From an uncultured Actinomycetes bacterium (GTDB lineage: Bacteria > Actinomycetota > Thermoleophilia > Solirubrobacterales > Solirubrobacteraceae), in contig CAVYAT010000002.1 of NCBI GenBank assembly GCA_963766605.1, positions 131,439 through 163,438 of the forward strand: a stretch of DNA of 32,000 bases. The letters are read 5' to 3'. The notes beneath the pieces are model-generated. The model had not been told where the DNA came from, searched no databases, and was given only the letters and a program-made list of their open reading frames with translations. Positions 5,132-16,085 of the stretch are shown here, one piece after another. The translations under genes and the position numbers were made by a program. Positions within the stretch are counted from its first letter, which is position 1; each line of letters begins with the position of its first letter.

Positions 5132-8100
5132 TCATCGAGCGCCCTTGCGCACGCATAGGTTGCCCAGATCGGCGCCGTAGACGCCGTACACCTGGCATCC
5201 CATCCGCGCCGAGAACAGCTCGTGCCCCGACTGGTTGCCGAATGCCACGAACGGCGCGGCGTCCCGCACGAGCGCTCGGTCCAGCCGCCCGTAGGCCAGG
5301 TAGCGCTTCGTCCCGCCGAGGCTGGCCGCGACGGCCAGCTGCGCGCGTGAACGGGCGTCTTGGAACTTCGGGAGCACGGTCCCGCTGGACAGCAGAACGT
5401 TGAGCATCGCGCCGGGGTCGGGGTAGTCCGGTATCCAGCCCAGCCACGCGATGTCGAACGGCGCGTGGGCGCTCGCGAGCTTCGCGTTCAGGGTCTGGTC
5501 GGGGAAGGTCTCGATCACGAGCCGGATCCCGATTGCCGCGAGGTCGGTCTTGACGATCTGTGCCTGTTGCTGGCACGGGGCAAAATCGCACGTCCACAAC
5601 ACCGCGGTCGCGCCGCGATGGTGTCCGGCAAGCGCCCGGGCTCGGCGGACATCCGGCCGCAGCGGGTATCCGCGCACGTCGCCATAACCGGGGATGCCCG
5701 GGGGGAGGTAGTCCTCGGTGACATGCTCGGGCAGCGGGTCGTACTCGTCGCCGAGGCGCGCCAGCGCCGATCGATCGATCGCGTAGTTGACGGCTTGGCG
5801 CATCCGTCGGGAGGCGAACAGCGGCCGCTGCGAGTTGAGCGCCAGGAAGTCGAGCTGGGGTGCGGCCTGGACGAAATACTGCTGGCGGCCATGCCGCGCC
5901 GCCCGGCTGCCGGCGCCGTACCGCGCGGCGAGCCAGGGCCCGTCGGTCCGATCGATCTCGCCTTCGAGCGCGTAGTCCGCGGTTCCCGCCCGCACCTGCG
6001 CGATCGCGTGGCGTGAGGACACGCCGACGGTCATGACGATCCGCTGCGGCCGGTGCGGGCGGGCGCCGTGGTAGTTGCGGTTGCGGGTGAGGACGATCCC
6101 CTGGCCGGGCGTATACGACGCGACCCGGTATGGGCCCGCCGACGGGATGACGCGCAGCCCACGGGGGTCGATCGGCGTATCCGACGGCACGGCACACAGC
6201 TCGGGCAGGGTCGTCCGCGCCGGCAGGTCGGGCGCGGGCGCGACCATGCGGATCGTCAGCGTATTCCCGCGGGCCACGACGCCCGAGATGTGCGGTGCCC
6301 GGCCGGCCATGTACGCCGCTGCCCCGGCGATGTCCGCGAACACGTACGCGACGGGGCTCTTCATCCGCGGGTTGAGGGTGCGCTCGATCGAGTCCTTGAA
6401 CGTCTGCGCCGTAACCGCCTGGTTCGACGGCGGCGAGAAGCGGAAGCCCGGCCGGATCACGAACGTGTAGCTACGACCGTCGGCTGAGACGGACGGCAGC
6501 GCCTGCGCGACCTCCGGGACGATCTCGGACGCCGCCGCGCCGCCGCGGTCGGGATAGTTCAACAACTTTGCGCAGGTCGCGTAGAGCAGCTGCGCCGACT
6601 CGCCGTCGTAGGAAAGCGCCGGGTCCATTGATGAGACGTCGTACGGCGCGTCGATGCGCACCGTGCCGCCGCCCGCTACCGCCCCGGCCACCCCCGCCGA
6701 TGGCACCGTCCGGGCGTCGACCGTGACCCAGGCCCGCCCGCGCGCGACCACGATCGCCTGCGGGCTGCCGCCGACCCCGATCGTCGCGACGGCTTTCCTG
6801 GTACGCGGATCGATGCGCGTCACCGTTCCGTCGCCGCTGTTGGCCACCCAGATCGCGCCGGCGCCGGCCGCCACTCCCGCCGGCGCATTGCCGACCGGGA
6901 TCGTGTGGTGACGGCCTGGGTGCCCGGATCGATCCTCAGCACGGCGTCGTCGGCGAAGTCCGCAACCCAGACGCCGCCGTAGCCGATCGCGATACCGGTC
7001 GGGTAGTGACCGACCGCGATCGATGTCGCGAGCCCGGTCGGGTCGACCCGCGTGACGTTGTCGGCATCGGTGTCGGTGATCCAGACCGCGTCGGCTCCGA
7101 CGCCCAGGCCGGCGGCGGCCGCGCCGGGGTCCAGGCGCCGCAGGACGCGTCCGGACCGCGGCGCGAGCCGCGTCAGCTGGCCCGCGAACGGCGCGACCCA
7201 CAGGGGCGCCTGCGCGCGCGGCGATCGCCGCCGGCGTGCCGGCCGCGACGCTGGCGATCCGGACCGTGCTGGTCGATCGCGTCGAATTGAGGATTGATGC
7301 GCACCACCGGGACCGATGTCGCGTTGGGGCTGGTGCCACTGACCCAGATCCCGCCCCCGGCGACGGCGATCCCGGTCGGCTGGCCGCCGAGCGTCAGGGT
7401 CCGGAGGGTCGACAGCGTCCGTGCGTCGACGCGCGAGATCGTCTGGTCGTCCTGGTTTGCGACCCACAGCGACCCGGACGCAAACGCGATCGCGCCGGGC
7501 CGCGCGCCGACCGTGACCTGGGCTACCACCCGGTTCGATCGCATGTCGATCGCCGCCACGGAGTTGGGCTCGGGGCGCAGGCCGTCACTCGAGCCGCCGG
7601 CGAATTCGGTGACCCCCAGTGCGACTGCGGCCACGAGCAGTAGCCCCGCGCCGGCGAGGACCAGCGCGCGGCCGCGCCTGCGGTCGCCCGGGGGACGATC
7701 GCGCGGGCGGTCGGACCGCGCCGTGGGCGCCGCGTCCAGGGCCGGATCGTGGGTGAGGATCTGTTGCTCGAGCGCGCGAAGCTCCGGCCCCGGCTCCAGG
7801 CCGAGTTCCTCGTCGAGCGCGGCGCGGCCGCGGCGATAGGCCTCGAGCGCGTCGGCCTGGCGCCCGCTTCGGTACAGCGCGAGCATCAGCTGCCCGAGGA
7901 GCCGCTCGCGGTGCGGATGGCGTCGGGCGAGCGCCTCGAGCTCGCCAACCAGCTCGCGGTGCGCGGCCGAGCATCAGGTCAGCGTCGGCGCGGTCCTCGG
8001 TTGTCGACAACCGCGCCTCCTCGAGGCGGGCGATCTCACCCTGGGCGAACGACTCGTAGGCCAGGTCGGCCAGCGGCTCGCCGTGCCACAGCTCGAGCGC

Positions 8101-8474
8101 CTCGACGAGCTGCTGGCGTGCAGCGGCCGCGTCACCGTCGTCCAGCGCCCGGCGCCCGTCGGCGGCCATCGCCGTGAACACGTCCGCGTCGACCTGCTCG
8201 GGCGCAGCGACCAGCTCGATAGCCGCCCCCGGGTCAGGAGCACGTCGCTTCCGAGCGCCTTGCGTAGGTGGGAGACGTAGCCCTGAAGCGTCTTTGCCGC
8301 CGTCGGGGGCGGTCGCTGTTCCCACAACTCATCGATCAGACGGTCACTCGGGACCGCCGCCCCGCGACGCAGTAACAACAGCGCGAGCAGCGCGCGTTGC
8401 CGCGGCCCGCCGAGTGCGAGCGCGCGCTGATTCTCGAGCACCTCCAGCGGGCCAAGGATCCGGAACTCGAGCAT
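5132..8474 (-). pseudogene. SARP/AfsR-type regulator fused to TM helix, YVTN/NHL-like beta-propeller repeats and a family-5 ABC substrate-binding domain; continuous only across five frame changes
   Basis: wHTH from ATG 8474: MLEFRILGPLEVLENQRALALGGPRQRALLALLLLRRGAAVPSDRLIDELW...LQGYVSHLRKALGSDVLLTRG. BTAD: ELVAAPEQVDADVF...ALELWHGEPLADL...ARLEEARL, then, in another frame, HRELVGELEALARRHPHRERLLGQLMLALYRSGRQADALEAYRRGRAALDEELGLEPGPELRALEQQIL. TM helix: ALVLAGAGLLLVAAVALGV. About 6 propeller blades follow (G.RP.AIA...GSLWVAN..D.T.SRVD pattern). SBP_bac_5-like domain: VRIDAPYDVSSMDPAL...WIPDYPDPGAML. Frame switches lie near 8226-8233 (C5 run), 7958-7966, 7265-7272, 7203-7206 (G4 run) and 6902-6912. 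Confidence 0.85.
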
Positions 8475-8520
8475 GGTTTGTGGTCGCCCCGGCGACACGC
8501 TACCGCCGCGTGCACCGATC

Positions 8521-8548
8521 TCCAACCGCTTCCAACCGTCCGCCAACC
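8521..8548 (+). promoter_or_regulatory. Three direct heptad repeats (T/G)CCAACC at 10- and 11-bp spacing (candidate SARP box)
   Basis: TCCAACC at 8521-8527, TCCAACC at 8531-8537 and GCCAACC at 8542-8548. They sit in the 141-bp divergent gap between the SARP gene start (8474, minus) and ATG 8616 (plus). Only a weak A2/T6 -10 candidate (GAGGGT, 8558-8563) follows. Confidence 0.45.
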
Positions 8549-8615
8549 GGGCCGCGCGAGGGTGTGCGCCGAATCCGATCGCATCAGGCGATCGGCAGAC
8601 CAGGAAGGTTCGGAG

Positions 8616-8900
8616 ATGTCCCCGCACAATCGCTCGATCAAGACGGCACTGGCACTGGCCCTCGCCGCGACCGCGGTCACCCCGGCGGCGGCCTCGGCCC
8701 GGTTTGATCTCAACCCGCCGCCGGTCCATGCCGCAGCGCCGCCCGTTCAGGTCGTCCACAGCGCGGCCGGCGACGGCTTCGACTGGGGCGACGCCGGCAT
8801 CGGCGCCGCCGGTGCCCTGGGCCTGTCGATGCTCGTCGGCGGCGGCGGCGCGCTGGTCGCGGGGAAGCGTCGCGGCCACCGCGCCACGGCCACGCCGTAG
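8616..8900 (+). CDS. Small secreted protein with Pro-rich linker and C-terminal motif-TM-basic tail
   Basis: ATG 8616 is preceded by GGAAGG..GGAG. The 94-aa product is MSPHNRSIKTALALALAATAVTPAAASA (signal-like), PPPVHAAAPPVQ, then GFDWGDAGIGAAGALGLSMLVGGGGALVAGKRRGH. It is the downstream part of ORF 8397..8900. Confidence 0.6.
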   Translation: MSPHNRSIKTALALALAATAVTPAAASARFDLNPPPVHAAAPPVQVVHSAAGDGFDWGDAGIGAAGALGLSMLVGGGGALVAGKRRGHRATATP

Positions 8901-8912
8901 CGGACAGATCCG

Positions 8913-9549
8913 ATGCTCCGGACGACCACCAGCCTCGCCGCAATCGTCGTCGCGGCGGGGCTCGCGGCCTCGGCCCGCGCCGCGACGATCCACCTGACCC
9001 GAACCGACGACCCGAGCTCGGGCGGCACGCGGTGCAGCACCCTCCTGTTGGTCAACACCGACTGCTCTCTGCGCAACGCCCTGAAGGCCGGCCGGCCCGT
9101 ATCTCGTCGAGCAGGAGGACTTGCCGCTGATCATTGCTCACGACGTCACGCTTCAGGGCACCGGCGCGCGGACGTCAACGATCGAGCGGTCGGGCGGGAT
9201 CGGCGGGGTCCTGTACATCAGCGCCGCCGACGCGACGGTAACGATCGACGGGGTGACGATCACCGGTGGGCGCGAGACGCTCGAGGGTGGTGGAGTCCTT
9301 AACCAAGGCGACCTGAGAATCAACAACAGCGCGGTGGTCGACAACGCCATCCTGGCGCAGTCGGGTACGCCCGCCTTCGGGGGCGGGATCTACAGCGACG
9401 GCCGGCTGGACCTCTTCGACACGACAGTCAGCGGCAACGAGGCGGTCAGCGACGGAACCGACTCAACGCGCCGCAACGTGCGACACAACGACCGCGACGG
9501 ACGCGAGCGTGAGACGACGACTCGCGCCCACTCGGCTCACCAACGGTGA
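8913..9549 (+). pseudogene. Secreted right-handed parallel beta-helix repeat protein, frameshifted and 3'-truncated
   Basis: Signal peptide MLRTTTSLAAIVVAAGLAASARA and a DCSLRNALKA motif (the CSLR(E/D)AI motif is typical at the N-terminus of beta-helix proteins) are in the 8913 frame. LPLIIAHDVTLQGTGARTSTIERSG...VTIDGVTITGG...LRINNSAVVDN...FGGGIYSDGRLDLFDTTVSGNEA is in the 9121 frame. The switch falls in ggccggccggccc (9086-9098). Repeat character is lost after ~9455, with a stop at 9547-9549, and only ~3 helix turns are present. Confidence 0.7.
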
Positions 9550-14138: not shown

Positions 14139-16085
14139 CTACTTCACCGTCAGCTTCAACTTCAGATCCACCCGGTTGCCGAACGTGTCGATCAGCCGCA
14201 CGCTCTCGGTCAGCTTCTGGTGACGGTGCGCGCGCAGACTGAACGTGAGCTTCACGTGCTTGCGGTCGAGCGTCCCCTGCTTGACGGCGAGGATCGTCGT
14301 CCCGCGGCGCACGACGGCGAAGTACTGACACGGGCACGCCGCGTCGCTGACCTTGCTGAGCACGTCGGCGAGCGAGCGCTTGCCATGGACGGTCTTCTTG
14401 GCCAGCGTCAGCTTGCCGCGCACCTTGCGCAGTGCCGTCCGCGCGTCCTCGGCGGCGCTCGTCACCTTCACGGCGACGGTTGCGGCGGTGCTCGCGCCGG
14501 CGTTGTCGAATGCCGTCACGCGTGCGGTGAACGTGCCCTTCGTCGGATAGATGTGACTGGCGGTAGGCCCGGAGGTCACGCGGTCGGCGACGCCGTCGCC
14601 ATCGAAGTCCCACTCGTAGCGCCCGATCGACCCGTCGGGGTCAGACGCCGTCGCCGTGAACGAGAACGACTTCGTCGTCGAGCCCGATCCCGGAGCGACG
14701 GCCAGCGAGACGACCGGCGGCTGGTCGAGCGGGTCGGGCGCGGTGACGAGCCGGGCAACCGCGAACTGAGACGGCACCGGGTTGGGCGAGGGCGGCACCG
14801 TCGGCGGCGCCAGTACGCGGAACGTCCCGACGGTGACCAGGCCCGCCGGCGTCAGGACGCTCGCCGCGTGCGAGTACGAATCGGTCGGCCCGTTGAACCA
14901 CGACGTGAACGGCCCATAGCCGTTGATCGGGTTGTCGCCGAACGACAGATCATGTGTGCCGTCGGCGTTCAGCCGGTTGGCGTAGCCGGAGCCGCGCACC
15001 CCGAGCCCACCGGCGGTGGCGACGACGTCGGCCCCGATCACGATGACACGACCGTCGTCGCCGATCACGAGGTCGCTCGGGATCGCGAGGCCGCCGTTGC
15101 CGATCTGCGTAACACCGCTTCCGCCGCCGAACGACGTGGCCACGTGCCCGTCAGGCGTGAAACGGACGACGGTCTCCGCGGCGGCGGCCGCGGCGAGGTT
15201 TCCGATGACCGCAAGACCCGCGGCCGAGACCGCCGGCTGACCGACGGCGGGGCCCTGAAGCGTGGCCGGCGAGCTCGGCAGCGTCGCAACCCCAGCGGTG
15301 CCGTAGGTTGGATCGGGCTGACCGCCCGTCGTGAAGCGCACGGCTGACAGCTCGTGCGTCGTGTTGTCGGCCTGCACACCGTTGGCCACGACGATCGGCT
15401 TCCCGTCGCTCTGGAGCACGACCCGGCCGATCGCCGCGTTGGTCCCGGCGTTGATTGCCTCGGAGCCGACGCCGGCGGTACCGAACGACGCGTCCTGGAC
15501 GCCCGCCGCATTCAGGCGGGCGATGCCGGCCGTCTTGGCGCCGACCGGGCCGTCGAAGTACACGAACCCGTTGCGGCCGTCGACGGCCACGCCGGAGACC
15601 GCGGTGAACGGAGCCGGGAGCGCCGTGATTGTCGCCGGTGCGGCGACGCCGCCGGCCGAGACGGTGTCGACGGCAAGGCTGGGAATCGCTGCGTTGAAGA
15701 CGACAGCCCCGACGAGGTAGGACCCGTCGGGCCGCTGCGCCACCGCGATCGCCCCGCTCGCGCTGTTCGGCGGGGCGATCGGGATCTCCACGTGCCCGGC
15801 AGTCCCGAACCCGCTTCGCGGTGTGCCCGACGCGTCGAGCGCGACCAGGCCGAGGTCGGACGTCGTCGAGGGCGCGGTCTGCGCGGCGCGCCCCGCGACG
15901 ATCAGCCCGCCGTCCGAGGTCGCTGCGACCGCCACAGCACCATCGACGAAAGCGCCGACATGCTGGGTGACCTCGCCGGTGCCGGCGCCGAACGTCGTGT
16001 CCAGCGCGCCGGGGTGGGCGCCGGCCGCGGCGGGAAGGCCCAGCAGGAGGGACAGGGACAGGGCCAGGGCGGCGCGAATTTGCAT
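14139..16085 (-). CDS. Secreted delta-60 repeat (beta-propeller-like) protein with PKD domain
   Basis: 648 aa. Signal peptide MQIRAALALSLSLLLGLPAAAGA. Recurrent motifs are LDTTFG.G.G, DGGLIVAG, DASFGTAG, PDPTYGTAG and DLSFGDN, spaced ~50-60 aa apart. The PKD-like segment is FSFTATASDPDGSIGRYEWDFDGDGVADRVTSGPTASHIYPTKGTFTARVTAFDNAGAS. A ~100-aa basic C-terminal domain follows. Confidence 0.85.
   Translation of the reverse strand: MQIRAALALSLSLLLGLPAAAGAHPGALDTTFGAGTGEVTQHVGAFVDGAVAVAATSDGGLIVAGRAAQTAPSTTSDLGLVALDASGTPRSGFGTAGHVEIPIAPPNSASGAIAVAQRPDGSYLVGAVVFNAAIPSLAVDTVSAGGVAAPATITALPAPFTAVSGVAVDGRNGFVYFDGPVGAKTAGIARLNAAGVQDASFGTAGVGSEAINAGTNAAIGRVVLQSDGKPIVVANGVQADNTTHELSAVRFTTGGQPDPTYGTAGVATLPSSPATLQGPAVGQPAVSAAGLAVIGNLAAAAAAETVVRFTPDGHVATSFGGGSGVTQIGNGGLAIPSDLVIGDDGRVIVIGADVVATAGGLGVRGSGYANRLNADGTHDLSFGDNPINGYGPFTSWFNGPTDSYSHAASVLTPAGLVTVGTFRVLAPPTVPPSPNPVPSQFAVARLVTAPDPLDQPPVVSLAVAPGSGSTTKSFSFTATASDPDGSIGRYEWDFDGDGVADRVTSGPTASHIYPTKGTFTARVTAFDNAGASTAATVAVKVTSAAEDARTALRKVRGKLTLAKKTVHGKRSLADVLSKVSDAACPCQYFAVVRRGTTILAVKQGTLDRKHVKLTFSLRAHRHQKLTESVRLIDTFGNRVDLKLKLTVK

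Follow-up and report, generated by a model that had tools for sequence, protein, structure and literature searches.

The locus studied here raises the question whether a short run of direct repeats between two divergently transcribed genes is an operator and, if so, which protein reads it and which gene it serves. The repeats lie in a window of 32,000 nt, i.e. the whole stretch of DNA that was analysed, from an uncultured member of the Solirubrobacteraceae (genome G000; 4.42 Mb, 71% G+C, 7 contigs). One of the two flanking genes encodes a regulator of the SARP family, with an OmpR-type wHTH and a BTAD domain, and the other a small protein. From the comparison of sequences we consider, with good confidence, that the heptads form a four-repeat SARP box in an activator-dependent promoter of the small gene, and that this box is read by the neighbouring regulator. 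The regulator would thereby, most likely, switch on a small membrane-anchored secreted protein.

For SARPs, sites of three heptads have been described that are separated by 4-nt (sometimes 3-nt) spacers and overlap the -35 position (PMC10972967, PMC5930380). Their repeats are phased by about 11 bp, units of 10 bp also being known (PMC10936776, PMC10972967). According to the published rule, 8 bp separate the 3' repeat from the -10 element and the repeats are phased by 11 or 22 bp; at the afsS promoter the -10 (CACTGT) is suboptimal and the -35 poor (PMC10936776).

Four phased heptads between two divergent genes

The two genes flanking the spacer are the following.

5132..8474, minus strand: SARP-family regulator gene, recognised by Pfam matches on frame pieces, by frame switches and by an intact orthologue
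8616..8900, plus strand: gene of a 94-aa protein, the putative target, recognised by its translation and homologues and intact in comparison with locus L138

Direct reading of positions 8300-8800 showed that TCCAACC begins at 8521 and again at 8531 and GCCAACC at 8542, with gaps of 10 and 11 bp, and that the array stands 47 nt off the ATG of the SARP gene (8474, minus strand) and 68-95 nt 5' of the ATG at 8616; in all these positions and distances the original prediction was accurate. It had, in addition, described the array as three repeats of a (T/G)CCAACC unit. All three copies are present, but both the number and the register had to be revised. The common repeat unit is CCAACCG (8522-8528, 8532-8538 and 8543-8549), and only this register gives the 8-nt distance to the -10 element. 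Furthermore, a direct-repeat search paired ACCGATCTCCAACCG (8514) with ACCGTCCGCCAACCG (8535) at an offset of 21 bp, and this pairing exposed a degenerate fourth heptad, TGCACCG, at 8511-8517. With ends at 8517, 8528, 8538 and 8549, the four heptads are spaced by 11/10/11 bp and are thus heptameric direct repeats phased by about one helical turn. We agree with the earlier remark that CCAACCG is unlike the classical TCGAG-type boxes, and this counts against the SARP reading. The array consists of four elements.

8511..8517, plus strand: heptad 1, TGCACCG, degenerate and 5'-most, 11 bp ahead of heptad 2, unchanged in L138 and L139
8522..8528, plus strand: heptad 2, CCAACCG, whose complement gives the TTG of the -35-like TTGGAG of the regulator gene
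8532..8538, plus strand: heptad 3, CCAACCG, which occupies the -35 position of the predicted small-gene promoter
8543..8549, plus strand: heptad 4, CCAACCG, the 3' repeat, exactly 8 nt ahead of the -10-like hexamer

Predicted promoter and leader of the small gene

When positions 8300-8800 were scanned with the sigma-70 consensus, no -35/-10 pair was found. Downstream of the array, three elements were assigned to the small gene.

8558..8563, plus strand: weak -10-like hexamer GAGGGT of the small-gene promoter, predicted from its position relative to the hairpin
8575..8595, plus strand: leader hairpin CCGATCGC-ATCAG-GCGATCGG, conserved and with covariation across 12 loci
8602..8608, plus strand: ribosome-binding site AGGAAGG, from direct reading

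Between the end of the last CCAACCG at 8549 and the start of GAGGGT at 8558 there are 8 nt, which puts the 3' repeat at a distance of 8 bp from the predicted -10. The array would take the place of the -35 element or overlap it, and the predicted core promoter is suboptimal. Transcription of the small gene would start, as we infer from this arrangement, at about 8570.

In the leader hairpin, five of the eight pairs have changed on both sides among 12 loci, while the top, CGC-A...G-GCG, is invariant. Over the same 12 loci 90.6% of the cells pair, compared with 23-47% when the 3' partner was slid. The U-G wobbles fall on the small gene's sense strand and, together with the covariation, fit a transcript start upstream of 8575. 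The hairpin might stabilise the mRNA or act as a regulatory site. A purine-rich block occupies the position equivalent to the ribosome-binding site in most homologous leaders. The sole Rfam match within 8400-8950, JUMPstart, was rejected since its 18.7 bits (E=0.19) fall short of the gathering score of 35.

Uniqueness of the array in G000

Counted over the two strands of the 4.42-Mb genome, the hexamer CCAACC is present 2140 times, and pairs of it at 10-11 bp are found in the whole genome at the heptad array only. The triple occurs once, also when one mismatch per heptad is tolerated; from the CCAACC counts we calculated that about 5e-4 such triples would be expected genome-wide by chance. A 54-nt position matrix, for which only 11 loci of genomes other than G000 served as training set (down-weighted by group), ranked the heptad site first of the 8.83 million positions of G000, with 37.7 bits, the runner-up reaching 21.6 bits. 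The original prediction had asked how often the triple-heptad arrangement recurs in the genome: it is unique rather than present at random frequency, and the exact triple, one mismatch per heptad and the matrix scan returned no further site in G000.

Matches with two mismatches per heptad were rejected as additional sites, as they turned out to be coding sequence and a repeat with multiple copies. Outside the window, a sequence of about 55 nt (GTGATGCAGTTCCGAACTGCCGGAAACCGCACACCAACCGAACAACGTGCC...) is present on both strands at seven or more places of the genome (C2:422213, C2:230535, C3:123995, C5:447658, C5:591317, C7:911991 and C7:519831), and it is probably part of a multi-copy element.

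The architecture is conserved in related loci

Since uniqueness alone leaves a neutral tandem duplication possible, conservation was examined. A search with the 83-aa wHTH sequence, which covered the GTDB species genomes as well as 300 genomes from within the family, yielded 12 loci in which a divergent gene bears the same C-terminal motif as the small gene. The related loci belong to uncultured Thermoleophilia (Solirubrobacterales and Gaiellales-type MAGs). The layout of heptads, 8 nt, [G/C]ANNNT and hairpin was found in 15 further loci, namely two close orthologues (L138 and L139) and 13 more distant ones; a SARP gene accompanies the small gene in 16 loci, G000 included. Being related to one another, these 16 loci correspond to about seven independent lineages, not sixteen. 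In nearly all of the 12 loci with a divergent gene, three to four heptads ending in (A)CCG are followed by 8 nt, [G/C]ANNNT, 9-12 nt and the stem-loop, and then by a purine-rich ribosome-binding site and the ATG.

For the stacking of loci the hexamer was chosen with the heptads ignored, as the sole [G/C/T]ANNNT in the stretch searched just 5' of the hairpin; each of 12 loci offered one candidate, 9-12 nt 5' of the hairpin. When 13 loci were stacked without gaps, 13/13 had a C at -10 followed by a G at -9, and the 8-nt gap was kept throughout. Information peaks with T..A(A)CCG recurred every 10-11 bp, at -15..-9, -27..-20, -38..-30 and -47..-41. In the -10-like hexamer of these 13 loci A and T are invariant, and the first base is G or C and never T, as would be expected for an activator-dependent promoter.

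The 11/10/11 array is also present in L018, L019, L023, L026 and G001. The G000 motif recurs in L018 (TCAACCC/CCAACCG/CCAACCA/CCAACCG) and L046 (ACAACCG/CCAACCG), while L019, L023 and L026 have TTTACCG/ACAACCG/CCTRCCG/GAAGCCG with 11/10/11 spacing. A subgroup of four loci (L021, L035, L041 and L050) contains heptads of the TCTACCG type, which are spaced by 10/13 bp instead of 11/10/11, an exception that weighs against the SARP reading.

Two comparisons were particularly informative. G001, a genome of the same genus, encodes the closest regulator found among the searched GTDB genomes (wHTH 72% identical), and here the small gene is placed in tandem upstream of the regulator gene rather than divergently. 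Its box (ACAACCG/TCAACCG/TCTACCG/TGAACCG, 11/10/11, then 8 nt and GACGGT) fronts the small gene and not the regulator start, and scored 37.1 bits against 2.2 bits for the next best position within 9 kb. As the box stayed with the small gene after the rearrangement, the array belongs to the small-gene promoter. The second comparison involves L138 and L139, two metagenome contigs whose small proteins are 81-82% identical to that of G000. Their spacers are 90% identical to the G000 spacer overall, and the 39-nt block from TGCACCG to the last CCAACCG is identical at 39/39 positions in L138 and at 37/39 in L139. All four heptads are unchanged in L138 and a single heptad base is changed in L139. The small-gene -10-like hexamer is GAGGGT in L138 and GACGGT in L139, the -10 hexamers of both promoters being kept, whereas the spacer outside the heptad block varies, notably beside the start codon of the regulator. 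Conservation in orthologous spacers, which had been proposed as a check of the prediction, is thus found in both close orthologues, and the same architecture extends to the 13 more distant loci.

The regulator, its predicted promoter and its reading frame

The regulator gene of G000 gave Pfam matches to Trans_reg_C (E=2.3e-9), BTAD (E=3.8e-17) and SBP_bac_5 (E=2.2e-49), the matching pieces being in different frames. Intact relatives contain wHTH, BTAD, an Arg cluster directly followed in order by one transmembrane helix, then a beta-propeller (Vgb_lyase/YNCE-type) and SBP_bac_5, and the regulator is a membrane-anchored large SARP. Two architectures were found among the partner regulators. The arrangement of transmembrane helix, propeller and SBP5 is present in G000, G001, L135 and L138, and a cytoplasmic AAA_16/STAND arrangement in L134, by Pfam, and in L136 and L137, judged from P-loop-containing sequences. 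The SARP domain and the design of the small-gene promoter are common to both. Two sensor modules on one conserved regulator-target pair look like sensor swapping (L134, L136 and L137 versus L126, L135 and L138). The recognition helix reads KTLQ.YVSHLR where the heptads are (C/A)CAACCG and VSRLR where they are TCTACCG; the helix thus seems to track the heptad type, a match that is no more than suggestive, since phylogeny is a confounding factor.

The regulator gene has a predicted promoter of its own.

8497..8502, minus strand: -10 hexamer TAGCGT of the regulator gene, 17 nt from a -35-like TTGGAG (8525..8520) that lies inside the array

This TAGCGT is invariant in L138 and L139, and most of the homologous regulator genes that were compared keep a TANNNT 25-35 nt ahead of their start codon. 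The regulator promoter (TTGGAG-17-TAGCGT in G000) overlaps heptads 1-2 in G000, L019, L023 and L026, and judged by this overlap autoregulation is likely in these four loci. The overlap is absent in L018, L022, L033, L046 and G001, and it would therefore be a secondary trait.

The reading frame of the G000 regulator gene is interrupted. Compared with the intact 1110-aa orthologue of L138 (86.6% DNA identity), about seven 1-nt indels are present, at ~8229, 7962, 7708, 7682, 7270, 7206 and 6904, together with another 1-nt indel within 15 nt of ~8229 and one in-frame 9-nt insertion. New stop codons were not found in the reference frame, and substitutions fall mostly on third codon positions (262 vs 98 and 86). 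No 1-nt breaks occur in rpoB (1249 aa), rpoC (1431 aa) and three other BTAD genes (1092-1120 aa) of this genome, and the neighbouring 1.9-kb gene likewise has no 1-nt indels relative to L138; a uniformly indel-rich assembly is thereby excluded as the cause of the frame breaks. Locally clustered consensus errors in the regulator gene are possible. Between such errors and a recent pseudogene the chances are roughly even, slightly in favour of real decay because the other genes are unbroken and the downstream gene is truncated. The regulator may consequently no longer function in G000, and the box may be a relic of recent date. With the regulator read as frame-broken and the downstream gene truncated, the circuit may be disabled in G000. 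The identity of the SARP box is independent of the frame state of the regulator; only its present activity hinges on it.

Frame breaks were also observed in L023 (G264:C1), where both the small gene and the regulator gene are affected, and in the small gene of L126 (G001:C16), which suggests that several assemblies of the group carry indels.

The small gene and its variable downstream neighbour

The 94-aa protein contains a signal peptide, a GFDWGDAGIGA motif, a hydrophobic span regarded as a transmembrane segment, and a basic tail. It gave no match to Pfam or NCBIfam. Its family comprises 402 metagenome homologues, nearly all of them unnamed or called hypothetical. Compared with its L138 counterpart the gene at 8616 is intact and free of indels. 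A second gene of the family was noticed elsewhere in G000 (C5:751640-751909), its product ending in ...FSWGDAGLGAAG, a transmembrane segment and a basic tail; its surroundings contain neither a SARP box nor a SARP neighbour.

The gene that follows the small gene is of a different nature.

8913..9451, plus strand: remnant of a 700-aa secreted repeat protein (passenger), from comparison with L138, where the gene is intact

In G000 this gene has lost 41 nt at about 9084 and breaks off at 9451. At the latter position synteny with L138 ends, to resume at 14141, and 4.7 kb of unrelated DNA stand in place of 1.9 kb of the L138 arrangement. In L139 the passenger gene is cut at a different place than in G000. 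Six loci were inspected for a conserved operon partner 3' of the small gene; none was found and the downstream genes differ, which places the beta-helix gene outside the conserved unit. The conserved core is the regulator gene and the small gene. The original prediction of a candidate target operon beside its regulator therefore stands for the small gene as the conserved target, but not for the beta-helix gene, a variable passenger that is truncated here.

Proposed mechanism

The proposal that the repeats are a SARP operator gains support from the 8-nt/11-bp geometry, the conservation and the uniqueness of the array, together with a regulator of the OmpR-type wHTH and BTAD type encoded nearby; the 8-nt distance recurs in 13/13 loci of the stack and likewise in G001. 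If the regulator acts as AfsR does at afsS, its wHTH-BTAD protomers would occupy the four heptads head-to-tail along one face of the DNA. Bound in this way, they would make up for the absent -35 contact and bring RNA polymerase to GAGGGT. The transcript, starting from about 8570, would carry first the stem-loop and then the coding region of the 94-aa signal-peptide protein with its C-terminal transmembrane anchor. Owing to the membrane anchor and the outside sensor domains of the regulator, the output would depend on an extracytoplasmic signal, perceived via the beta-propeller and the family-5 solute-binding domain. As the array overlaps the -35-like element of the regulator gene, binding probably also feeds back on the regulator.

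An extension of this circuit, to which we give little credence, makes the small protein the signalling partner of the membrane-tethered SARP in a positive-feedback or cell-to-cell loop. The small protein would be exposed or cleaved outside at its conserved juxtamembrane motif DWxDAGIG, and the protein or a peptide derived from it would be sensed by the outside beta-propeller and the oligopeptide-type SBP5 of the regulator. It speaks against such a loop that cytoplasmic SARPs of the STAND type, too, occur as partners of related small-gene promoters.

Alternative readings of the array

The array could, although this is improbable, be bound by another regulator of the OmpR/PhoB family, e.g. a response regulator of the PhoP, MtrA or GlnR type, the adjacency of the SARP gene being incidental. 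Direct repeats at one-turn spacing are general in the OmpR family, and the afsS site is common to PhoP and AfsR (PMC10972967). Yet a global regulator should have several sites, and the array is unique in the genome. Moreover, a SARP gene is found beside the box in 16/16 loci, a linkage that was kept after the rearrangement, and the heptad type shifts with the SARP recognition helix. A PHO box is built from direct repeats of 11 nt whose core resembles GTTCACC, and is present at several sites per genome, whereas the array at this locus has a CCAACCG core, not the GTTCACC PHO unit, and is a single site. Finally, the 8-nt rule is specific to SARPs (PMC10936776).

It is a step less probable that the repeats are mainly an autoregulatory operator over the -35 of the regulator (TTGGAG-17-TAGCGT) and not an activation site of the small gene. 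In G000, L019, L023 and L026 the regulator -10 indeed sits 8 nt from heptad 1, and in the same four loci the complement of heptad 2 supplies the TTG of the -35 at 17-nt spacing. In L018, L022, L033 and L046, however, the regulator -10 is 40-50 nt away from the array, the array of G001 is not beside the regulator start at all, and it is the 8-nt relation to the small-gene -10 that is invariant.

We regard it as very improbable that the repeats are a neutral tandem duplication with a slippage unit of 10-11 bp, or chance -35-like elements, devoid of any regulatory function. Slippage readily yields three perfect copies in a row and is compatible with the uniqueness of the array, but the phasing, the 8-nt offset and the ..ACCG ends persist where the heptads have otherwise diverged, and in the close orthologues no part of the spacer is as well conserved as this block; this reading was already disfavoured on these grounds. 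Promoters of ECF sigma factors combine a GGAAC-like -35, a spacer of 16-17 nt and a CGTC-like -10, and the idea that the AACC cores are -35 elements of such a promoter (GGAAC-N16-17-CGTC type) is equally hard to credit: AAC-containing heptads do occur together with CGT-containing -10-like hexamers (CAGCGT in L018, GAGCGT in L019, GATCGT in L021), but G000 has GAGGGT without CGTC, the gaps between heptads and hexamer are 8 and 19 nt instead of 16-17, and three to four phased copies would be left unexplained.

Significance and comparison with known systems

Having weighed these alternatives, we retain the four-repeat SARP box of the small-gene promoter as the preferred explanation. For membrane-anchored SARPs whose solute-binding sensor lies outside the cell, it provides a concrete and testable candidate operator, together with a promoter and one conserved target. 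Such membrane-anchored sensor-SARPs are a widespread, unstudied class of regulators of soil actinobacteria, and our literature search for membrane-bound SARPs with solute-binding domains found no paper. SARP domains with two different sensor modules are linked to one family of small anchored proteins with more than 400 homologues, essentially none of which is functionally annotated. The Streptomyces SARP promoter rule would appear to hold in the deep-branching Thermoleophilia with a different heptad.

ToxR and CadC combine a cytoplasmic OmpR-type wHTH, a single transmembrane helix and an outside sensor domain, and bind DNA at the membrane. The likeness of the present regulator to them is one of topology only, and ToxR and CadC are not known to have a BTAD domain or the 8-nt SARP geometry.

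The closest parallel is AfsR/afsS of Streptomyces coelicolor (PMC10936776), where an activator with wHTH and BTAD acts at direct repeats of about 11 bp that extend over the -35 and the spacer. Both systems have a suboptimal -10 at a distance of 8 bp from the 3' repeat (CACTGT at afsS and the predicted GAGGGT here), and in both a small target gene adjoins the gene of a large SARP. Unlike the two 11-bp units at afsS, four heptads (11/10/11) are present here, and their sequence is CCAACCG, where the afs box repeats CGTT(T/C)ATCGNN. A further difference concerns the sensor part, which is composed of a transmembrane helix, an outside beta-propeller and SBP_bac_5 here and of a cytoplasmic NOD-TPR in AfsR, and the present system comes from an uncultured lineage of Thermoleophilia.

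With the sites of ActII-ORF4, DnrI, FdmR1, VlmI and the SARP-LAL regulator PimR (PMC10972967, PMC5930380), the array shares at least three heptads with 4-nt (sometimes 3-nt) spacers, its location on the coding strand of the target and a spacer that is divergent from or beside the regulator gene. In contrast to this locus, those pathway activators recognise TCGAG-like heptads and control antibiotic clusters; the sole conserved target here is a small membrane-anchored protein, with no biosynthetic cluster. Taken together, the promoter design is that of a textbook SARP and the circuit is conventional. What is new compared with the known systems are the CCAACCG heptad, the four-heptad 11/10/11 array and the conserved leader hairpin, as well as a membrane-anchored sensor-SARP as the presumed binder and a conserved small anchored protein as the sole target.
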